NCBI GenBank assembly: GCA_949293175.1
Contig: CASFCI010000005.1
Span: 69,005-133,004, forward strand
Reading direction: 5' to 3'
DNA length: 64,000 nucleotides
Origin: an uncultured bacterium
Lineage (GTDB): Bacteria; Bacillota_I; Bacilli_A; RFN20; CAG-826
Shown here: positions 37,144-44,764 of the stretch, one piece after another
Numbering within the stretch: position 1 is the stretch's first letter
How the letters are laid out: every line of letters starts with the position of its first letter
Position numbers and translations under genes: made by a program
Notes under the pieces: model-generated
Told to the model about the DNA's origin: nothing
Seen by the model: only the letters and a program-made list of their open reading frames with translations
The model's database searches: none

Positions 37144-37181
37144 AAAAGCCCGCAAGAGTTCATCCCCTTGCGGGCTTTTTC
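37144..37181. terminator. Strong bidirectional terminator after nifJ
   Basis: AAAAGCCCGCAAG...CTTGCGGGCTTTTT. Confidence 0.8.
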
Positions 37182-37208
37182 TATCGATTTGCGGCCATTT
37201 ATAGGCGC

Positions 37209-37363
37209 AGTGAAGTTAGTGAAGAAAACTACACTGCTACTTCACTGGCTGTGTAGTTCATGCCGTTTTTTGGCGTGAAAACATAGTCTCAAAGGGCTTG
37301 TTTTTGGATTTGGAGTGGTGATTGCAGTGAAGTTAGTGAAGAAAACTACACTGCAACTTCACT
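37209..37363. repeat. 155-bp direct repeat, left copy (motif-spacer-motif)
   Basis: Gap-free match to 39088-39242 with 4 mismatches (37308, 37321, 37324, 37325). The 38-nt motif AGTGAAGTTAGTGAAGAAAACTACACTGC[T/A]ACTTCACT lies at 37209-37246 and 37326-37363. Confidence 0.95.
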
Positions 37364-37435
37364 CCTCGGCGAAATCGGAGGTTCAATCGGCTTTTTCTAA
37401 GCCTGGCCGCATCGATATTTGGATATAAAATTCAA

Positions 37436-38908
37436 TTAGAAGTAAGCCAAATGGACTCTTTCCCGATTTGTTGAATATTGGGTCGTGGGCCCTTTTTCGA
37501 TTTTGATTAGGTGCTGGGATTGGCAAAGGCGTTCTAGGACTTTTTGCCTGAAGTACGACGAGGGCGTGATGCCGAGCTGCTTGGCTATTTCCGCGGCGCT
37601 TCTTGGCTTTGGATAGCAATAAGAGAGAATGGCTAGGTCCTTTTTGCCGCTTAGCTCCACGTCGGGATAGATTGCCGGCGACTGATTTTTGGATATTAGG
37701 CCTTCCTTAAAGGCCAAATCAGGCAAAGTCAGGGCGAAAAAGTCGGATGAGGAGCTGGCCATTGGGGCGAATTTTTCTCCATAGGGGGCGTAGTCTTCCT
37801 CGATCTTATCGAAACCGCTGCCACGCTTTTCCATTAGCTTTAGCAGACTGAAAGCGGCGCAGATAACCTCATTTCGCCTTATGGGCGGTATGGATGAAAG
37901 GTTCGTTTCCTCATTCAATTGCCTAAGCCCGGGCAATGATCCCGGCGATACTATCTCGAGGCGATCGGCGAAGCGGTTGATTTCAATCTGCGAGCCGTCC
38001 ATGAAGTAATTGCGGTGCGCGAGCGCGTTAATAATCGCTTCCTGCAGCGAGCGAGGCGGGAAGCTGATGAGCTTTTCCTGCCCTCCGAAGACCTTGATGT
38101 AACCATCGGCCGATCTCTCGCCGATGAAATCGATAATATCCTCGTATTCCCGCAGGAGGTTTGCCTTGATGCTTTTTGTCGCATAGGTGGCGTTGTCGCC
38201 TTTGCTTATCCCTTTGTATTCGCTGCAGACGACTAAGGTCTTGTCGCTTTCGAAGCCATCTTGGAAAAGCATGGCCCCTTTGCTGAGCTTCCCATCCTCG
38301 GAAATAAAGCCGATTGAAAACAGCTCTTTTTCGCTTATCTCCCTTCCGTTGGCTTTTTTGAAATAAGCTTCAAACAAAGAGAAATCCTGCTTGCGGTATT
38401 GATTTTGGGTGAAGGCGGCATCGAAGTGGATGTTCTCGCTGTCGAGGACCAAGTTGCGTATTTCCTCGCTGGTCGCGACGCCGGTCAAGCCAAACTTCCG
38501 AACGTAGATTGTGCCGGTGTCTTTGAACTTGACCGTTATAGGGGCATAGGAGCTTCTTTTCACGTCGATTCGCATGACATATCTCGCCGGAGTGTATCCC
38601 GGAACGGCAATTGGCGTTATGCGATATGGTATTTCCGGTTCGACGTGCTGTTTCGTCTGACGGTTAATCAGCTGGACTGTCTTGTCGAAAGCCTCGTGAT
38701 CAAGCGGGTTTACTTCATGGGTGTCGTTTTTGACCCCAACGAACATGGCGCCGCCGGTGGTGTTGGCAAAAGCCGCCAACTCCTTAAGCCACCCGATCTC
38801 GAAATAACCTCCGCTCTCGCCGGGCTTTTTCCCTTCTTTGAGAATTTCTTTGAATTCAATGTTGCCGGTTTCTAAATTTACTCCCGGAATCAGCTCTTCG
38901 ATATACAT
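37436..38908 (-). CDS. AlbA_2 (Schlafen-type 'divergent AAA') + HATPase_c_4-like + C-terminal wHTH protein. This family is often annotated as a RecG-like or putative transcriptional regulator.
   Basis: N-terminal GNIEFKEILKE...WLKELAAFANTTGGAMFVGV. Mid-region LQEAIINALAHRNY...IEIVSPGSLPG. C-terminal AAEIAKQLGITPSSYFRQKVLERL. GC content is lower than in neighbouring genes. Confidence 0.7.
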   Translation of the reverse strand: MYIEELIPGVNLETGNIEFKEILKEGKKPGESGGYFEIGWLKELAAFANTTGGAMFVGVKNDTHEVNPLDHEAFDKTVQLINRQTKQHVEPEIPYRITPIAVPGYTPARYVMRIDVKRSSYAPITVKFKDTGTIYVRKFGLTGVATSEEIRNLVLDSENIHFDAAFTQNQYRKQDFSLFEAYFKKANGREISEKELFSIGFISEDGKLSKGAMLFQDGFESDKTLVVCSEYKGISKGDNATYATKSIKANLLREYEDIIDFIGERSADGYIKVFGGQEKLISFPPRSLQEAIINALAHRNYFMDGSQIEINRFADRLEIVSPGSLPGLRQLNEETNLSSIPPIRRNEVICAAFSLLKLMEKRGSGFDKIEEDYAPYGEKFAPMASSSSDFFALTLPDLAFKEGLISKNQSPAIYPDVELSGKKDLAILSYCYPKPRSAAEIAKQLGITPSSYFRQKVLERLCQSQHLIKIEKGPTTQYSTNRERVHLAYF

Positions 38909-38952
38909 GCAAATCCGCCTTTCGCATCAATTTTAAACATTTAAATGCCTGT

Positions 38953-38993
38953 AGTGAAGTAGGACTGAAGTAAAACTACACTGTAACTTCACT
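38953..38993. repeat. Diverged fifth copy of the palindrome-ended motif, candidate operator
   Basis: AGTGAAGTaggactgaagtaaaactacactgtaACTTCACT, 45-85 nt upstream of the AlbA_2 gene start. Confidence 0.8.
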
Positions 38994-39087
38994 GTAAACT
39001 TCGCTTTCTCCTATTTTGGCCAGAGAAGGAAAACGTTAGACCCAATCGAAGCTTTTTAGGTAAACAAGACTTGATTTGGCGCTGCGG

Positions 39088-39242
39088 AGTGAAGTTAGTG
39101 AAGAAAACTACACTGCTACTTCACTGGCTGTGTAGTTCATGCCGTTTTTTGGCGTGAAAACATAGTCTCAAAGGGCTTGTTTTTGGCTTTGGAGTGGTGG
39201 TTATAGTGAAGTTAGTGAAGAAAACTACACTGCAACTTCACT
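39088..39242. repeat. 155-bp direct repeat, right copy
   Basis: See the left copy. Motif copies lie at 39088-39125 and 39205-39242. Confidence 0.95.
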
Positions 39243-39310: not shown

Positions 39311-39351
39311 AACTAAATAAAACAAAAATCCTGATGCTTATGCACCAGGAT
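39311..39351 (-). terminator. Rho-independent terminator of tRNA-Pro
   Basis: Stem ATCCTGATGC/GCACCAGGAT with one mismatch. On the minus strand it is followed by TTTTTGTTTTATTT. Confidence 0.7.
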
Positions 39352-39363
39352 CATTGTTTTGCC

Positions 39364-39440
39364 TGGTCGGAACGACGGGATTCGAACCCGTGACCCCTAC
39401 CACCCCAAGGTAGTGCACTACCAAGCTGTGCTACGTCCCG
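39364..39440 (-). tRNA. tRNA-Pro (anticodon GGG), CCA encoded
   Basis: Manual fold of the reverse complement: CGGGACG-TA-GCAC-AGCTTGGTA-GTGC-A-CTACC-TTGGGGT-GGTAG-GGGTC-ACGGG-TTCGAAT-CCCGT-CGTTCCG-A-CCA. Confidence 0.9.
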
Positions 39441-39698: not shown

Positions 39699-40814
39699 AT
39701 GAAAAGCAAAGTCTACTTCACTACCTTCCGCGTGAGAGTGGGGGAATCGCAGACCCACAAGCTCCAGCGCCTAATGGACAAGGCCGGGTTCAAGGACATG
39801 AACCTCGAGGGCAAGTTCGTCGCCATAAAGATGCATTTCGGGGAATGGGGCAACCTGACCTTCCTCCGCCCCAACTGGGCCCGGGCCGTGGCCGATAAGG
39901 TCAAGGAGCAGGGCGGCCGCCCGTTCCTGACCGACTGCAACACCCTCTACCCGGGGTATCGCAAGAACGCCCTCGACCACCTCACCTGCGCCGAGATGAA
40001 CGGCTTCTCCACCGCCTCGACTGGCTGCCACATCATCATCGGCGACGGGCTGAAGGGCACCGATGAGGTCGACGTCCCCGTCAAGGGCGGCGAGCTTTGC
40101 CATGAGGCCCACATCGGGCGCGCCATAATGGACGCCGACGCCTTCATCTCGCTCACCCACTTCAAGGGACACGAGGAGACCGGCTTCGGCGGGGCGCTCA
40201 AGAACATCGGCATGGGCTGCGGGTCCAGGGCTGGCAAGATGGCTCAGCATAACGATGGCAAGCCCATCGTCGACGAGAATAAGTGCCGCGATTGCCATGC
40301 CTGCGCCAGGGAGTGCGGCTCCGACGCCATTAGCTACGCCTCGGGCAAGGCCCACATCGACCAAGACCTTTGCAAGGGCTGCGGACGCTGCATCGGCGCC
40401 TGCCCATTCGACGCCATCTCGCCTCAGGACAGCTCGTCCAACACCAAGCTCGGCATGAAGATCGCCGAATACGCGAAGGCGGTGGTGGATGGCCGCCCCT
40501 GCTTCCACATCACCCTCATCCAGGACGTCTCCCCCAACTGCGACTGCCATGTCGAGAACGACGGGCCGATCCTGCCCGACATCGGGATGCTCTGCTCCTT
40601 CGATCCGGTCGCCCTCGACCAGGCCTGCGTCGACCTCTGCAACAAGGCCAGCCCGATCGAGGACAGCCAGCTAGGCGAGGCCATAAAGGAGCACGGGGAG
40701 ACCGGAAACCACTTCCACGACTCCAACCCGCGCACCGATTCCGAATCCGCCCTCGCCCACGCCGAGAAGATCGGGCTCGGAAGCCGCGAATACGAACTTA
40801 TCAAGATGAACTGA
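39699..40814 (+). CDS. DUF362-domain Fe-S protein with two 4Fe-4S ferredoxin motifs (COG2768-like)
   Basis: N-terminal KVYFT...FVAIKMHFGE...PFLTDCNTLY. CRDCHACARECG and CKGCGRCIGACP clusters. Confidence 0.75.
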   Translation: MKSKVYFTTFRVRVGESQTHKLQRLMDKAGFKDMNLEGKFVAIKMHFGEWGNLTFLRPNWARAVADKVKEQGGRPFLTDCNTLYPGYRKNALDHLTCAEMNGFSTASTGCHIIIGDGLKGTDEVDVPVKGGELCHEAHIGRAIMDADAFISLTHFKGHEETGFGGALKNIGMGCGSRAGKMAQHNDGKPIVDENKCRDCHACARECGSDAISYASGKAHIDQDLCKGCGRCIGACPFDAISPQDSSSNTKLGMKIAEYAKAVVDGRPCFHITLIQDVSPNCDCHVENDGPILPDIGMLCSFDPVALDQACVDLCNKASPIEDSQLGEAIKEHGETGNHFHDSNPRTDSESALAHAEKIGLGSREYELIKMN

Positions 40815-40816
40815 GA

Positions 40817-41383
40817 TTAGCCGAGGGATTCGATTGTGCGGTCGAAGACCTCGGTTTTTATTTCCTCGAAATTCTCGTCTGATTGCGCGTCGATTCTCAC
40901 GAAAACCGTTTTTCCGCTTTTGAGGTCGCGCCCATCCCACCTAAATTCCGCATTTTCCCATTTCTCGTCTTCTACCGGGAAGAAGATGATCGCGAGTTGG
41001 CAGCCGTCCTCGTCTGATAATATGGCGTGCCACGCCGTATGCTCATAGCCACCATTTTTGTTTTCGTCGAAAAGCGGGAAGCCCCATTTGGCCTCGTCTT
41101 CGTATAGGGACGATAGAAATGGCCCGGGACTTTTGGATTTGATTTGAAAGAAGAACGTATATTCGTCCAACGAATACCCGAAAAGCCCTTCATCGAAGTT
41201 CAGGTGAGGGGTCTTTGTACCGGGGTATGTTGCTTCTTGGCGCACCAGCAGGTCTTCTAGCTGGGAGTAATCACGGCATGTGATCGCTCCTTTGCAAGTG
41301 TAGGTGCAAGAAGAAAGCGCCTGGGCAGCAAGAAGCAGAAGCGGCCAGATGGCCCTTTTCTTAATTATTTCAATAATTGTCAT
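40817..41383 (-). CDS. Hypothetical lipoprotein
   Basis: MTIIEIIKKRAIWPLLLLAAQALSSC lipobox. GGGGAGAGG SD lies 7 nt upstream. Confidence 0.5.
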   Translation of the reverse strand: MTIIEIIKKRAIWPLLLLAAQALSSCTYTCKGAITCRDYSQLEDLLVRQEATYPGTKTPHLNFDEGLFGYSLDEYTFFFQIKSKSPGPFLSSLYEDEAKWGFPLFDENKNGGYEHTAWHAILSDEDGCQLAIIFFPVEDEKWENAEFRWDGRDLKSGKTVFVRIDAQSDENFEEIKTEVFDRTIESLG

Positions 41384-41762
41384 AAAGCAGCCTCTCCCCG
41401 TATGTGTCGGCAAAGACGAATTGATCGATGGACAGTCTATTTAGGTTTCTATCTCCAATAGCTTCGGAATTATTCGTTATTCTTATTCCGAACATTCCGT
41501 TTTGATTGGTGAATTGTTTTCTTGAGAAACCATTAATTTTTGCTTTTAGCTGCCCAGATTGTATTTCCGATATAAGATTACAGACTTTCTTCCAACCGGC
41601 CGAATTGTCTTGCACTTCGATATACGCCTCTGATTCATCAGTTATAAAATATTCGTTATTCCACAGCGCTATGCCCAATTGAGCGGCAGCGCCTAAACAC
41701 GGCTTTGCGTTGTTCACGCTTAAAGCCGAGACGACAATAGCTAAAAACAAGGAAATTGTCAT
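41370..41762 (-). CDS. Hypothetical secreted protein (AT-rich gene)
   Basis: Signal-like MTISLFLAIVVSALSVNNA at an internal ATG preceded by AAAGGGG. Overlaps the downstream gene by 14 nt. Confidence 0.45.
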   Translation of the reverse strand: MTISLFLAIVVSALSVNNAKPCLGAAAQLGIALWNNEYFITDESEAYIEVQDNSAGWKKVCNLISEIQSGQLKAKINGFSRKQFTNQNGMFGIRITNNSEAIGDRNLNRLSIDQFVFADTYGERLLYDNY

Positions 41763-41911
41763 ATATAACCCCTTTTGTTTTGACAAATTCATTATCCAAA
41801 ACGTTTCGATTTTTGTCAAGGCGGTGCAAAATCGTCATTTCCGGCGATTGCTTAAGTTACCATGGCATCCGCAAACGAAGTTTGCCGTTCCTAGTGTATA
41901 ATCTTGCCGCT

Positions 41912-44764
41912 ATGGAAAAGAACAATGTCAGCTCCAAGGATTGGATAATCGTCAAAGGCGCGAGGGAGAACAACCTCAAGAACGTCGACGTCGCCATACC
42001 CAAGGGATCGCTCACGGTATTCACCGGGGTGTCCGGGTCGGGCAAATCGACTTTGGCCTTCGACACCATCTTCTCGGAGGGCCAGCGCCGCTACGTGGAA
42101 TCGCTGTCTAGCTATGCCAGGCAGTTTTTGGGCGGCTTCGAGAAGCCGGACGTCGACTCGATAGAAGGCCTCTCCCCGGCCATCTCGATCGACCAGAAGT
42201 CGACCTCGCACAACCCGCGTTCCACCGTCGGGACCGTCACCGAGATCTACGACTACCTCCGCTTGCTTTACGCCAGGGTCGGCGTCCCTTATTGCCCCAA
42301 CCACCACACGCCGATAAAGTCCTTCTCCCCGGTGGCGATGGCCAACGCCATCCTCGCCTACCCGCAGGGCACGAAGATACAGATACTCTCCCCGGTCGTC
42401 AGGGACGAGAAGGGCACCCACGCCGACACGATCGACAAGCTCAAGAAGCAGGGCTTCTCCCGCATCAGGATAGACGGGAACAGCTACGTGCTGCCGGTGG
42501 TGTCGGAGCTGGAGAAGAACAAGCGCCACAGCATCGACATCGTCATCGACCGCCTCATCTGCAAGGAAGGCATCCGCGAGAGGGTGCTCGAGGACGTCGA
42601 GCTCGCCTTGGACTGGGGGCATGGGTATCTGACCATCCTCACCGACGAGGGCGAGCGGCTATTAAGCTCCAAGCACTGCTGCAGCGAATGCGGGTTCTCC
42701 ATCCCCTCGCTCGAGCCGCGCCTATTCTCGTTCAACGCGCCTTTGGGGTATTGCCCCGACTGCAAGGGCCTCGGCATCAAGCGCGAGGTGTCCATCGATC
42801 TGCTAGTCCCAGATCAAAGCAAGACCATCGCCGGCGGGGCGATCCGCTACCTGAGCGGCATCGTCAACACCCCCAACATCGAGTGGAAGGAGTTCGAATA
42901 CCTGTGCAATACCTACTCCATCCCGCTGGATGTGCCTTTCGCCTCCCTCAGCAAGAAGCAGAAGGACATCATCCTCTATGGCTCCCCGGATAGGCTGGAC
43001 TACGTATTGACCTCCTCAAGCGGCAACAAGATGAACCGGCATGGCAAGATCGAGGGCATCAAGACGAGGATCGAGCGGCTCTACCGCGAGACCAGCTCGG
43101 ATTGGATGAGGCAGTACTACGAGTCCTTCATGAGGGACTCCATCTGCACGACCTGCCATGGGGCGAGGCTCAACCAGGCCGCCCTCTCCGTCAAGGTCAA
43201 CGGGCTCAACATCTACGAGGCCACCTGCCTGTCGCTGGAGAGGTTCCTCTGCTGGATAGACGAGGTGCCGTCGATCTTGGACGAGGAGGGCAAGCAGATC
43301 GCCTCCCTCATAATCAAGGAGCTCCGCAACCGGGCCCAGTTCCTGGTCGACGTGGGGCTTGAGTACCTCACCCTTTCCCGGTACGCCATGACCCTTTCCG
43401 GCGGGGAGAGCCAGCGCATCCGCCTCGCCACCCAGATCGGGTCGCGGCTCTCTGGCGTGCTCTATGTCCTCGATGAGCCCTCGATCGGTCTGCATCAGCG
43501 CGACAACGACAAGCTCATCGCGACGCTTAAGGAGATGCGCGACCTCGGCAACACCCTGATCGTGGTCGAGCACGACGAGGACACCATGCGCTCGGCCGAT
43601 TACCTGGTCGACGTCGGTCCCGGGGCGGGGGTCCATGGCGGCGAGGTCGTCGCCAGCGGGTCGCTAAGCGACATCGAGTCCTGCCCCCGCTCGGTCACCG
43701 GCGACTACCTTTCCGGAAAGAAGAGGATCGAGGTGCCTTCAAATAGGAGGAAGGGCAACGGCAAGAAGCTCACCATCCTCGGCGCGAGCTGCCACAACCT
43801 CAAGGGCATCGACGTGAGTTTCCCGCTAGGGACGCTCATCCTCGTAACCGGGGTCTCCGGCTCGGGCAAGAGCTCGCTGGTCAACGAGACGCTGGTCCGC
43901 GCCTTGGACAAGTACCTGAACAAGAAAAACGACCCCGAGCCGATTCTGGCCAAGAAGATCAAGGGCATCGAGAACATCGACAAGCTGGTCTCGATCACCC
44001 AGGAGCCGATCGGGAGGACCCCGCGGTCGAACCCCGCCACCTACACCGGGGTCTTCGACGACATCCGCGCCCTTTTCGCCGAGACCGACGAGGCAAGGGC
44101 GAAGGGCTTCGACAAAGGCCGCTTCTCCTTCAACGTCCCCGGCGGGCGGTGCGAGAAGTGCCAGGGGGCCGGGGTCACCCGGATCCCGATGTCCTTCCTC
44201 CCCGACGTCTACGTCAAATGCGACGAATGCGAGGGGAAGCGCTACAACGAGGAGACCCTCCGCTGCTACTACAAGGGCAAGAACATCCACGACGTCCTCG
44301 AGATGCGGATCGAGGAGGCGGTCGACTTCTTCGCCAACCGCCCGAAGATACTCAACAAGATCAAGACCCTCTGCGACGTCGGGCTAGGCTACATCAAGCT
44401 GGGCCAGCCGGCCACCGAGCTATCAGGCGGCGAGGCGCAGCGGGTCAAGCTCGCCACCGAGCTGCAGAAGAAGATGACCGGCAAGACGGTCTACGTCCTC
44501 GACGAGCCGACGACCGGGCTGCATTCCGACGACGTCAACAAGCTCATCGCCGTGCTGCAGCGCATCGTCGACCACGGCGACACCGTGATCGTCATCGAGC
44601 ACAACCTCGACGTCATCAAGGTCGCCGACTACATCATCGACCTAGGCCCGCTAGGCGGGGACAAGGGCGGGACGGTGGTCGCCACCGGGACCCCGGAGGA
44701 GGTGGCCGATAACCCCAACAGCTTCACCGGCCAATACCTCCGCAAGGCCCTCAATATGGATTAA
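41912..44764 (+). CDS. uvrA: Excinuclease ABC subunit A
   Basis: Two ABC modules (GVSGSGKST twice, LSGGE signatures) and zinc fingers. The start MEKNNVSSKDWIIVKGARENNLKN follows a TGTATAAT box. Confidence 0.97.
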   Translation: MEKNNVSSKDWIIVKGARENNLKNVDVAIPKGSLTVFTGVSGSGKSTLAFDTIFSEGQRRYVESLSSYARQFLGGFEKPDVDSIEGLSPAISIDQKSTSHNPRSTVGTVTEIYDYLRLLYARVGVPYCPNHHTPIKSFSPVAMANAILAYPQGTKIQILSPVVRDEKGTHADTIDKLKKQGFSRIRIDGNSYVLPVVSELEKNKRHSIDIVIDRLICKEGIRERVLEDVELALDWGHGYLTILTDEGERLLSSKHCCSECGFSIPSLEPRLFSFNAPLGYCPDCKGLGIKREVSIDLLVPDQSKTIAGGAIRYLSGIVNTPNIEWKEFEYLCNTYSIPLDVPFASLSKKQKDIILYGSPDRLDYVLTSSSGNKMNRHGKIEGIKTRIERLYRETSSDWMRQYYESFMRDSICTTCHGARLNQAALSVKVNGLNIYEATCLSLERFLCWIDEVPSILDEEGKQIASLIIKELRNRAQFLVDVGLEYLTLSRYAMTLSGGESQRIRLATQIGSRLSGVLYVLDEPSIGLHQRDNDKLIATLKEMRDLGNTLIVVEHDEDTMRSADYLVDVGPGAGVHGGEVVASGSLSDIESCPRSVTGDYLSGKKRIEVPSNRRKGNGKKLTILGASCHNLKGIDVSFPLGTLILVTGVSGSGKSSLVNETLVRALDKYLNKKNDPEPILAKKIKGIENIDKLVSITQEPIGRTPRSNPATYTGVFDDIRALFAETDEARAKGFDKGRFSFNVPGGRCEKCQGAGVTRIPMSFLPDVYVKCDECEGKRYNEETLRCYYKGKNIHDVLEMRIEEAVDFFANRPKILNKIKTLCDVGLGYIKLGQPATELSGGEAQRVKLATELQKKMTGKTVYVLDEPTTGLHSDDVNKLIAVLQRIVDHGDTVIVIEHNLDVIKVADYIIDLGPLGGDKGGTVVATGTPEEVADNPNSFTGQYLRKALNMD

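Follow-up and report, generated by a model that had tools for sequence, protein, structure and literature searches.

Near-identical arrays of phased half-sites bracket a Schlafen nuclease-ATPase gene with a C-terminal winged helix and are its putative operators

Schlafen (SLFN) nucleases of bacteria have only recently been established as antiviral tRNases, and for the class that adds a kinase-like ATPase and a helix-turn-helix (HTH), about one-fifth of them, neither a trigger nor a target nor a mode of regulation is known (PMC13056530; 10.64898/2026.05.29.728809). This class makes up 19.2% of 5,930 bacterial Schlafens under the name pSlfn-HisKinase-HTH (Nat Microbiol 2026, PMC13056530) and is termed 'Schlatpase' with a short HTH in the second source (bioRxiv 10.64898/2026.05.29.728809). 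Both list it without characterisation, and the available text of neither describes cis elements, an HTH target or flanking repeats. Here we analyse a gene of this class in a 64-kb stretch of contig CASFCI010000005.1 from an uncultured bacterium (the window), where it is bracketed by near-identical direct repeats built of short half-sites. The window protein has the same three domains as pSlfn-HisKinase-HTH / Schlatpase-HTH, as well as the E(x)4(D/E)xK motif, a SAFAN-like box, PF13749 and a short C-terminal HTH. No description of such an array-gene-array layout was found in the searchable literature, which excludes most subscription journals; the order of sites, gene and the same sites around Schlatpase-HTH genes in many gut bacteria is apparently undescribed. 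Coordinates follow the numbering of the window, and L-numbers denote loci fetched for comparison.

SLFN-pAgo (RzAgo) and Cash have the SLFN nuclease module in common with the window protein. RzAgo contains the same SLFN-GHKL supradomain and forms an ATP-driven tetramer that acts on tRNA, with ATP driving tetramerisation of the module and tRNA cleavage following (10.64898/2026.05.29.728809), and its nucleic-acid-bound filament holds the nuclease inactive. The sensor in these systems is an Argonaute core with guide RNA or a domain binding cyclic tetra-adenylate (cA4). In the window protein the sole extra domain is the winged helix, and its apparent ligand is the DNA flanking its own gene. Full-length structural likeness to the window protein is also shown by 3LMM, DIP2311 of Corynebacterium diphtheriae, a structural genomics target of unknown function.

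As for the repeats, helical-turn-phased short repeats over the promoter of the gene for the putative binding protein recall iteron-type operators and looping repressors, and distant auxiliary sites could bridge as they do there. ParR acts on parC of plasmid R1, where two sets of phased 11-bp repeats lie around the promoter, and lac, gal and deo are controlled by multi-operator looping repressors. Unlike in all of these, the second array of the window lies past the stop codon, so that the pair brackets the whole coding sequence; moreover, the arrays are near-identical direct copies of 40-160 nt, and the product is a nuclease-ATPase rather than a partition or metabolic operon. Solo long terminal repeats (LTRs), and deletion between flanking direct repeats as a general outcome of recombination, offer a further parallel, since occupied sites read repeat-gene-repeat and empty orthologous sites keep one hybrid repeat. 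In contrast to LTRs, however, neither a reverse transcriptase nor an integrase is present, and instead of element termini the repeats are putative protein-binding arrays.

Repeat units and the enclosed gene

According to the repeat search, the window contains a direct repeat of 159 nt (37205-37363 and 39084-39242) with 97% identity and a start-to-start distance of 1879 bp. In the 155-nt frame (37209-37363 versus 39088-39242) only unit positions 100, 113, 116 and 117 differ, and all 4 mismatches fall within a 79-nt spacer. The same 38-nt motif, AGTGAAGTTAGTGAAGAAAACTACACTGC(T/A)ACTTCACT, forms both the start and the end of each 155-nt unit, which gives a periodicity of 117 nt within the unit. 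Direct reading shows the motif ends AGTGAAGT and ACTTCACT to be exact reverse complements. The exact motif occurs 4 times in the 64 kb (at 37209, 37326, 39088 and 39205; expected number 0 from 100 shuffles), and a relaxed search with its 22-nt core adds one match at 38972-38993, which is part of a fifth, diverged copy (38953-38993). The initial annotation had reported the two units with their 4 spacer mismatches, the 38-nt motif with reverse-complement ends at both unit ends, the fifth copy and a single lower-GC gene with AlbA_2, HATPase_c_4 and winged-HTH domains, all of which is borne out here, the domains by Pfam and, for the winged helix, by the AlphaFold model. The half-site makeup of the motif and its family-wide arrangement are additions to that description.

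The 38-nt motif consists of four 7-nt half-sites GTG(A/T)AGT, two direct and then two inverted; in gene orientation their order is GTGAAGT, GTGTAGT, a TTT loop, CTTCACT and ACTTCAC. One more half-site, ACTACAC in gene orientation, stands 4 nt ahead of the second motif in each unit. Read in gene orientation, 37209..37257 contains the order that is canonical for the family, namely one inverted, two direct and two inverted sites. The features of the module are as follows (positions of single half-sites come from the half-site map).

37209..37363, no strand: nifJ-side 155-nt unit, 3' of the gene, with motif 1 (37209-37246), spacer (37247-37325) and motif 2 (37326-37363)
37209..37257, no strand: motif 1 with the adjoining half-site GTGTAGT (37251-37257)
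37436..38908, minus strand: Schlafen nuclease + GHKL ATPase + C-terminal winged helix, 490 aa (pSlfn-HisKinase-HTH / Schlatpase-HTH), according to Pfam, AlphaFold and Foldseek
38930..38958, minus strand: predicted sigma-70-type promoter with -35 TTCACT (38958-38953), a 17-nt spacer and -10 TAAAAT (38935-38930)
38953..38993, no strand: fifth, diverged motif copy, i.e. the promoter-proximal array, which ends ~45 nt before the ATG, the canonical position in the family
39088..39242, no strand: tRNA-side 155-nt unit, 5' of the gene, with motif 3 (39088-39125), spacer (39126-39204) and motif 4 (39205-39242)
39130-39136, no strand: extra half-site of the tRNA-side unit

The single open reading frame (ORF) between the repeats (38908<-37436) encodes a protein in which Pfam reports SLFN_AlbA_2 (PF04326) at residues 13-138 (5e-17), HATPase_c_4 (PF13749) at residues 305-394 (3e-17) and a weak HTH_20 match. 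The AlphaFold model, computed with 24 homologues (predicted local distance difference test, pLDDT, 88.3), ends in a three-helix, two-strand winged helix at residues 423-479 (helices 423-429, 437-444 and 450-462, strands 466-471 and 474-479; pLDDT 85-93). Foldseek finds 3LMM (DIP2311) as the only full-length structural relative (E = 4e-20, ~16% identity), which is a sequence profile match as well. For the N-terminal domain it reports SLFN5/11/13/14 and the SAMD9 tRNase domain, for the middle domain weak matches to GHKL kinases (PDK and the CA domains of histidine kinases), and for the C-terminal tail MarR/SmtB repressors, including ZitR. The prokaryotic Schlafen nuclease motif, defined in the cited pSlfn literature as E(x)4(D/E)xK plus a SAFAN box, is present as E12-x4-E17-x-K19 and AAFAN48. 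Among the 24 homologues E17 and N48 are invariant, E12 and K19 are found in at least 90%, and the GHKL boxes NAxxHRNY, DRLEIxSPG and GSG are invariant. PADLOC and NCBIfam assign no family to the protein, with only weak PADLOC matches to Argonaute-associated SLFN-GHKL models. By homology, it would be an ATP-dependent, oligomerising tRNase, toxic when active. The promoter scan places the predicted -35 box within the last half-site of the proximal array.

Arrays around homologous genes and their putative role

Homologues with 36-57% identity were collected from 185,579 species genomes, one plasmid record and metagenome assemblies, and belong to Bacilli, Clostridia, Erysipelotrichia, Treponema and Coriobacteriia (three phyla). 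At least 3 RTGWAGT sites are present within 150 nt upstream in 71 of the 82 unique homologous loci, and an array of such sites within 123 nt downstream in 36 of them, compared with 0 of 143 control segments 1 kb away having at least 3 sites. At about 35 loci the arrays form a direct repeat of 40-86 nt with 90-100% identity, located at about -100..-35 and +1..+65; control comparisons yield no more than 27 bits, save for one match of 121 bits (L067). The canonical upstream array comprises ACTTCAY, 5-7 nt, three direct RTGAAGT, a 3-nt loop and two inverted sites, followed by ~10 nt, a TATAAT-like box, a ribosome-binding site and the ATG. Throughout the family, 29-50 nt separate the end of the last half-site from the ATG, and the downstream array of canonical loci mostly begins at the stop codon (TAActtcac). 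Direct sites are spaced by 10-12 bp in 254 of 327 cases, convergent sites by 10 bp and inverted-inverted sites by 11 bp, i.e. the spacing of half-sites is one helical turn. The window locus enlarges the family-wide array, promoter, gene, array layout in a lineage-specific manner (2 + 1 + 2 motif copies); in the enlarged form the proximal array is diverged and a two-motif unit with a 79-nt spacer lies on either side.

When the array pattern itself was scanned against the 185,579 genomes, 115 new loci were obtained, of which 47 have the gene within 200 nt, 35 lie too near a chunk edge to judge and 31 are internal without the gene. The neighbourhoods of the loci vary from lineage to lineage, and the arrays track the adjacent gene across three phyla. 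Many homologues are found on contigs that run for 1556-1592 bp and stop within the arrays; such ~1.56-kb contigs arise because flanking repeats break de Bruijn short-read assemblies.

Comparison with strain L017 indicates which parts of the window locus are retained. The four motifs are identical at 151 of 152 positions, while the genes show 98-99% identity and the neighbouring intergenic DNA 87-93%. In the nifJ-side unit, the motifs are 100% conserved and the spacer at 78 of 79 positions; in the tRNA-side unit, the respective values are 75/76 and 65/79 (82%), and the fifth copy retains 39 of 41 positions. Judged by these alignments, the 38-nt motifs appear selectively conserved, more than chance and more than recent duplication would give.

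The half-site varies between lineages, being GCGAAGT in L041, L046, L056 and L063, GCGAACT in L014, and TTGAAGT in L011, L050 and Butyrivibrio pCY360. The clearest case of variation is L027:1170-4560 (likewise L177), where two head-to-tail paralogues are each bracketed by their own direct repeats. In the first, the repeats are 66 nt long (89% identical, spacing 1559) and composed of GAAAAGCGAAA/TTTCGC, and the recognition helix is VSLSTHLRKDIL; the second has GTGAAGT arrays and the recognition helix VTPSTYFRSSVL. As read from the two helices and their repeats, this tandem pair would amount to a natural specificity-swap pair. Upstream arrays of distant paralogues (L047:119-260, L029:1449-1540 and L023:1120-1210) are composed of unrelated units, namely TTTGGGGAA in six copies plus one inverted, ATGATAAGATAA in four and ATTTATCGCTT in three, so the rule of one gene, own array may extend far past the GTGAAGT subfamily. 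Between paralogues, the repeat unit changes together with the HTH, and a residue-level recognition code between helix and half-site is suggested at most.

The arrays are conserved, phased, promoter-overlapping and gene-specific; they co-vary with the HTH, and they recombine. Winged-helix binding, repression, looping, the tetramer stoichiometry and nuclease toxicity are inferred. Overall, the arrays are best explained as putative cognate operators through which a toxic nuclease gene is autorepressed and probably also bridged or insulated, with recombination added (probability about 0.72). The half-site arrays would be recognised by the C-terminal winged helix of the enclosed gene's own product, and binding at the proximal array over the -35 box would occlude RNA polymerase, resulting in autorepression of a tRNase that may be toxic. 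Further arrays, distal and downstream, may add cooperative binding, either by bridging (looping) across the gene or by insulating it from read-through, so that extra arrays on both sides would keep it silent. A GHKL-driven oligomer would supply several HTHs, and the four half-sites of a 38-nt motif would suit one tetramer. Finally, since the two arrays are direct repeats, recombination takes place between them as well; it keeps them homogeneous and now and then removes the gene, with a solo array left behind. An operator array for the encoded winged-HTH protein was one of three options offered by the initial annotation, and the -35 overlap, the half-sites shared with homologues across phyla and the change of the unit with the HTH make it the best-supported of them.

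Several points weigh against this explanation. A downstream array is missing in about half of the homologues, which keep the upstream one, therefore bracketing is not obligatory, and in the window itself the downstream unit starts 73 nt past the stop codon, not at it. Residue-level co-variation of helix and half-site is no more than suggestive, with SDS accompanying TTGAAGT at 2 of 3 loci and YLR accompanying GCGAA at 3 of 5. The identity of 97-100% between arrays, linkers included, exceeds what selection for binding would require, and recombination must therefore be added to the operator function. As for looping and the tetramer stoichiometry, both are purely conjectural.

Recombination between arrays and alternative explanations

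Empty sites that keep exactly one array occur at two orthologous positions in relatives. At the first, L040 and L189 have host gene A, a terminator, an array, the Schlafen gene and host gene B, and the empty site in L104 has host gene A, the terminator, one complete array, 55 nt and host gene B, with flanks 77-79% identical to those of L040 on both sides; in L139 the array and flank A are retained next to other DNA. At the second, L169 has flank, array and gene, and L099 and L115 have flank, one array and a different gene (L099 and L169 come from the same metagenome-assembled genome, MAG, with the flank 89% identical). At both sites the solo array has the left context of an upstream array and a right end without -10 box, a structure as expected from recombination between two arrays. 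Among the 31 gene-less loci of the reverse scan, ~10 are coincidences in coding sequence or GC-rich genomes and ~12 are canonical solo arrays, the neighbours of which share nothing. A regulon of solo arrays was rejected in favour of deletion scars for this heterogeneity of neighbours. Linker states shared by the two arrays of one locus point the same way in several pairs, with 5-6 concerted versus 0-2 orthologous-type sites, and single concerted changes are seen in the orthologous pairs L028/L093 and L044/L045. In the window the two units are near-identical, whereas in L017 they differ at ~14 spacer positions, therefore conversion or duplication in one lineage was recent.

Exactly one array left at each empty site, ~12 solo arrays with unrelated neighbours and lineage-specific linker states common to both arrays are also what one would expect if the arrays were primarily recombination sites, with the gene and one array excising as a circle of ~1.6-1.9 kb and re-entering solo arrays as a selfish mobile element, through either host homologous recombination or the encoded protein. 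A downstream array at the stop codon suits such a circularly permuted unit, the GC content of the gene is below that of its flanks, neighbourhoods differ by lineage, and many homologue contigs break in the arrays. We nevertheless consider this reading doubtful. Two proteins that recur in identical form on 14 and 11 contigs, respectively, never differ in their neighbours across many samples, for which reason active transposition was rejected. No known recombinase fold is found in the 490-aa protein by Pfam or Foldseek, and no target-site duplication is visible at the array edges of canonical loci. A one-array circle cannot make arrays at a naive site by conservative recombination, half of the loci keep the upstream array without the downstream one, and host recombination alone would delete between direct repeats of 40-160 nt. 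The family is also nearly absent from viral contigs: the relatives on phages and plasmids are all distant and for the most part HTH-less. The IncC plasmid homologue is part of a type I restriction-modification operon and a member of another subfamily, and the Lactiplantibacillus plasmid match is an unannotated fragment. On the IncC plasmid pNDM-KN of K. pneumoniae (L233, 85194-86357), the HTH-less SLFN-GHKL gene overlaps genes for a TrlF-like ATPase and a type I restriction S subunit, a setting unlike that of the stand-alone HTH class.

The setting of the window locus bears on the same question. The block is delimited by the following two features, both of which lie outside the module.

37144..37179, no strand: nifJ terminator hairpin, left boundary of the block
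39327..39440, minus strand: tRNA-Pro(GGG) (39364-39440) with terminator hairpin (39327-39352), right boundary

GC content inside the block is 0.43-0.53; nifJ and the DUF362 gene reach 0.60-0.65. The recorded neighbours, which are UvrA, two small ORFs without Pfam match, DUF362 and pyruvate:ferredoxin oxidoreductase (PFOR), include no recombinase domain, so the initial annotation was right both in placing the block between the nifJ and tRNA-Pro terminators and in seeing no recombinase around it. The nifJ/DUF362 context is confined to the window's species among all fetched loci, the gene is kept between nifJ and tRNA-Pro in 4 of 4 independent assemblies of that species, and a look-up via the DUF362 neighbour gave occupied sites only. 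The cassette looping out by recombination between the direct repeats, as once proposed, can therefore be retained as an evolutionary process in the family, with its two empty sites, but not as excision at this locus, and the empty site with a single repeat copy that was to be sought was found at two orthologous positions in relatives but not at nifJ/tRNA-Pro. Loss, and possibly regain, via the arrays is real but slow, and it is a consequence of the architecture, not its purpose. An att-flanked integrative element (a tRNA-adjacent island or a cis-mobilisable element, CIME) was rejected too, as tRNA-Pro and the window repeats have no sequence in common and no integrase is recorded among the neighbours.

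A second low-GC patch is located between the DUF362 Fe-S gene and uvrA (40800-42000, 0.39-0.50 versus ~0.63 around it), with minus-strand ORFs at 40817-41413 and 41370-41819, the L017 counterparts of which have no Pfam match. In a MAG of Ca. Alloenteromonas pullicola (L001:1598-1635) the nifJ side has one 38-nt motif and is 117 bp shorter than in the window, due to either recombination between adjacent motifs or, equally well, an assembly collapse, given that the sister contig breaks off within the other repeat unit; this difference was left out of the evidence.

In a Coriobacteriaceae genome (L009), both arrays and the gene are carried on an insert of 1846 bp with a duplicated gltD 3' end at either boundary, outside both arrays, in the pattern of an att-flanked integrative element. 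As they travel inside the insert, the arrays go with the gene rather than with the insertion site or mechanism. Three copies of the gltD 3' end (glutamate synthase small subunit) lie within 5 kb of L009 (3732-3822, 5578-5668 and 8531-8592), as if inserts lacking an integrase had accumulated one after another at a single attachment hot spot; the Schlafen module is the first of these inserts. In Ca. Weimeria bifida (VOGC01000002.1; L165:2030-2260, L121:1485) an array, a 5' leader and the first Schlafen codons resemble a decayed copy, and the intact Schlafen gene elsewhere on the contig (L052) has no proximal array.

Two further kinds of loci contain similar half-sites. Prevotellaceae MAGs (L149:3830-4200, L174:3510-3900 and L198:6160-6420, as well as L107, L118 and L128) have a different multi-copy element, in which ACTTCAC/GTGAAGT repeats are followed by tandem 'aaaacaacgttttcagagg'-type iterons; each genome has several copies of the element, none of them close to a Schlafen gene. 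In L203:1700-1900, a partial array ATGAAGT-att-GTGAAGT-gta-ACTTCAC is found between two tRNA genes of a low-GC genome, and the 8-kb chunk has no Schlafen gene.

A bolder version, which we hold to be unlikely, makes the arrays a cis-acting 'DNA antitoxin' and sensor platform of a one-gene abortive-infection system or, as a variant, a self-contained array-gene-array cassette that moves between solo-array 'landing pads'. Inactive Schlatpase-HTH oligomers would be parked on the ten to twenty bracketing half-sites, possibly in a GHKL-driven loop, and would be released to cleave tRNA when the chromosomal DNA is degraded, unwound or out-titrated in the course of a phage attack.

According to another explanation, the motifs act as RNA or single-strand hairpins (terminators or insulators, mRNA-stabilising 3' hairpins or small RNA genes) independently of any protein, which we regard as improbable. 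Each motif does fold as DNA, with -7 to -10 kcal/mol and z = -3 to -4.5, the RNA of the 246-nt downstream region reaches z = -4.8, and on the sense strand G-U pairs are commoner than A-C pairs at two positions. A crude scan also finds a separate terminator in 4 of 40 loci with a downstream array and in 11 of 45 others, a difference that is not significant. Hairpin folding, however, is a property of any palindrome. Pairing over 32 arrays amounts to 87.9%, compared with 85.9% after column shuffling, therefore column composition accounts for it; the central pair fails to form in 11 of 32 arrays (conserved GTGAAGT facing ACTACAC), and so do most of the linker pairs. Upstream arrays precede the -10 box and are hence outside the transcript of the gene, no T run follows the window motifs, and the purely direct paralogue repeats TTTGGGGAA x6 and ATGATAAGATAA x4 cannot fold as hairpins. 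Apart from tRNA-Pro, there is no Rfam match at E values up to 10, with all other scores far below gathering. These results do not support the pair of structured RNA genes, which had been put forward as another of the initial options.

It is scarcely credible that the gene is flanked by chance by an interspersed repeat (repetitive extragenic palindrome, REP, or miniature inverted-repeat transposable element, MITE), a CRISPR-like array, an integron attC cassette or the iteron origin of an integrated mini-replicon: the units do end in short inverted sequences and exceed the genome in AT content, their 117-nt repeat-spacer-repeat period is superficially CRISPR-like and phased iterons next to a winged-helix protein recall iteron plasmid origins, but all five copies in the 64 kb are at this locus, the exact motif is found in one of the 185,579 species genomes (the Ca. 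Alloenteromonas pullicola MAG, at the same locus only) and has 0 matches in Joint Genome Institute (JGI) metagenome contigs, the arrays follow the gene through three phyla, each unit has two repeats only with both 79-nt 'spacers' being 95% identical copies and no cas genes among the locus neighbours, no integrase is among the neighbours and the motif ends AGTGAAGT and ACTTCACT contain no GTTRRRY attC core, and Foldseek reports no Rep, HUH or initiator fold in the protein, the plasmid homologues of which are distant. The genome-wide REP/MITE-like repeat that had been considered beforehand thus did not materialise, the motif being confined to the locus both in the 64 kb and in the matching MAG.

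Meaning for the Schlafen family

On the operator explanation, the locus is an autoregulated toxin or defence gene with putative iteron-like operators, neither a REP element nor an artefact. What distinguishes it is that the putative operators stand on both sides of the coding sequence in the form of direct repeats that hardly differ from each other. The pattern holds generally in a large, uncharacterised Schlafen class and supplies the first candidate ligand for it. Together with ~80 homologous loci, the window points to phased 7-nt half-sites on one or both sides of the gene as the HTH target. The family also offers a clear example from nature of a gene being lost between direct repeats while solo arrays stay behind, and explains why short-read assemblies break these genes into ~1.56 kb contigs. 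If true, the DNA-antitoxin or landing-pad version would give the second most common bacterial Schlafen class a kind of mechanism not described so far. The target specificity of the HTH appears to change between paralogues. The locus and its homologues also yield an annotation rule for Schlatpase-HTH genes.

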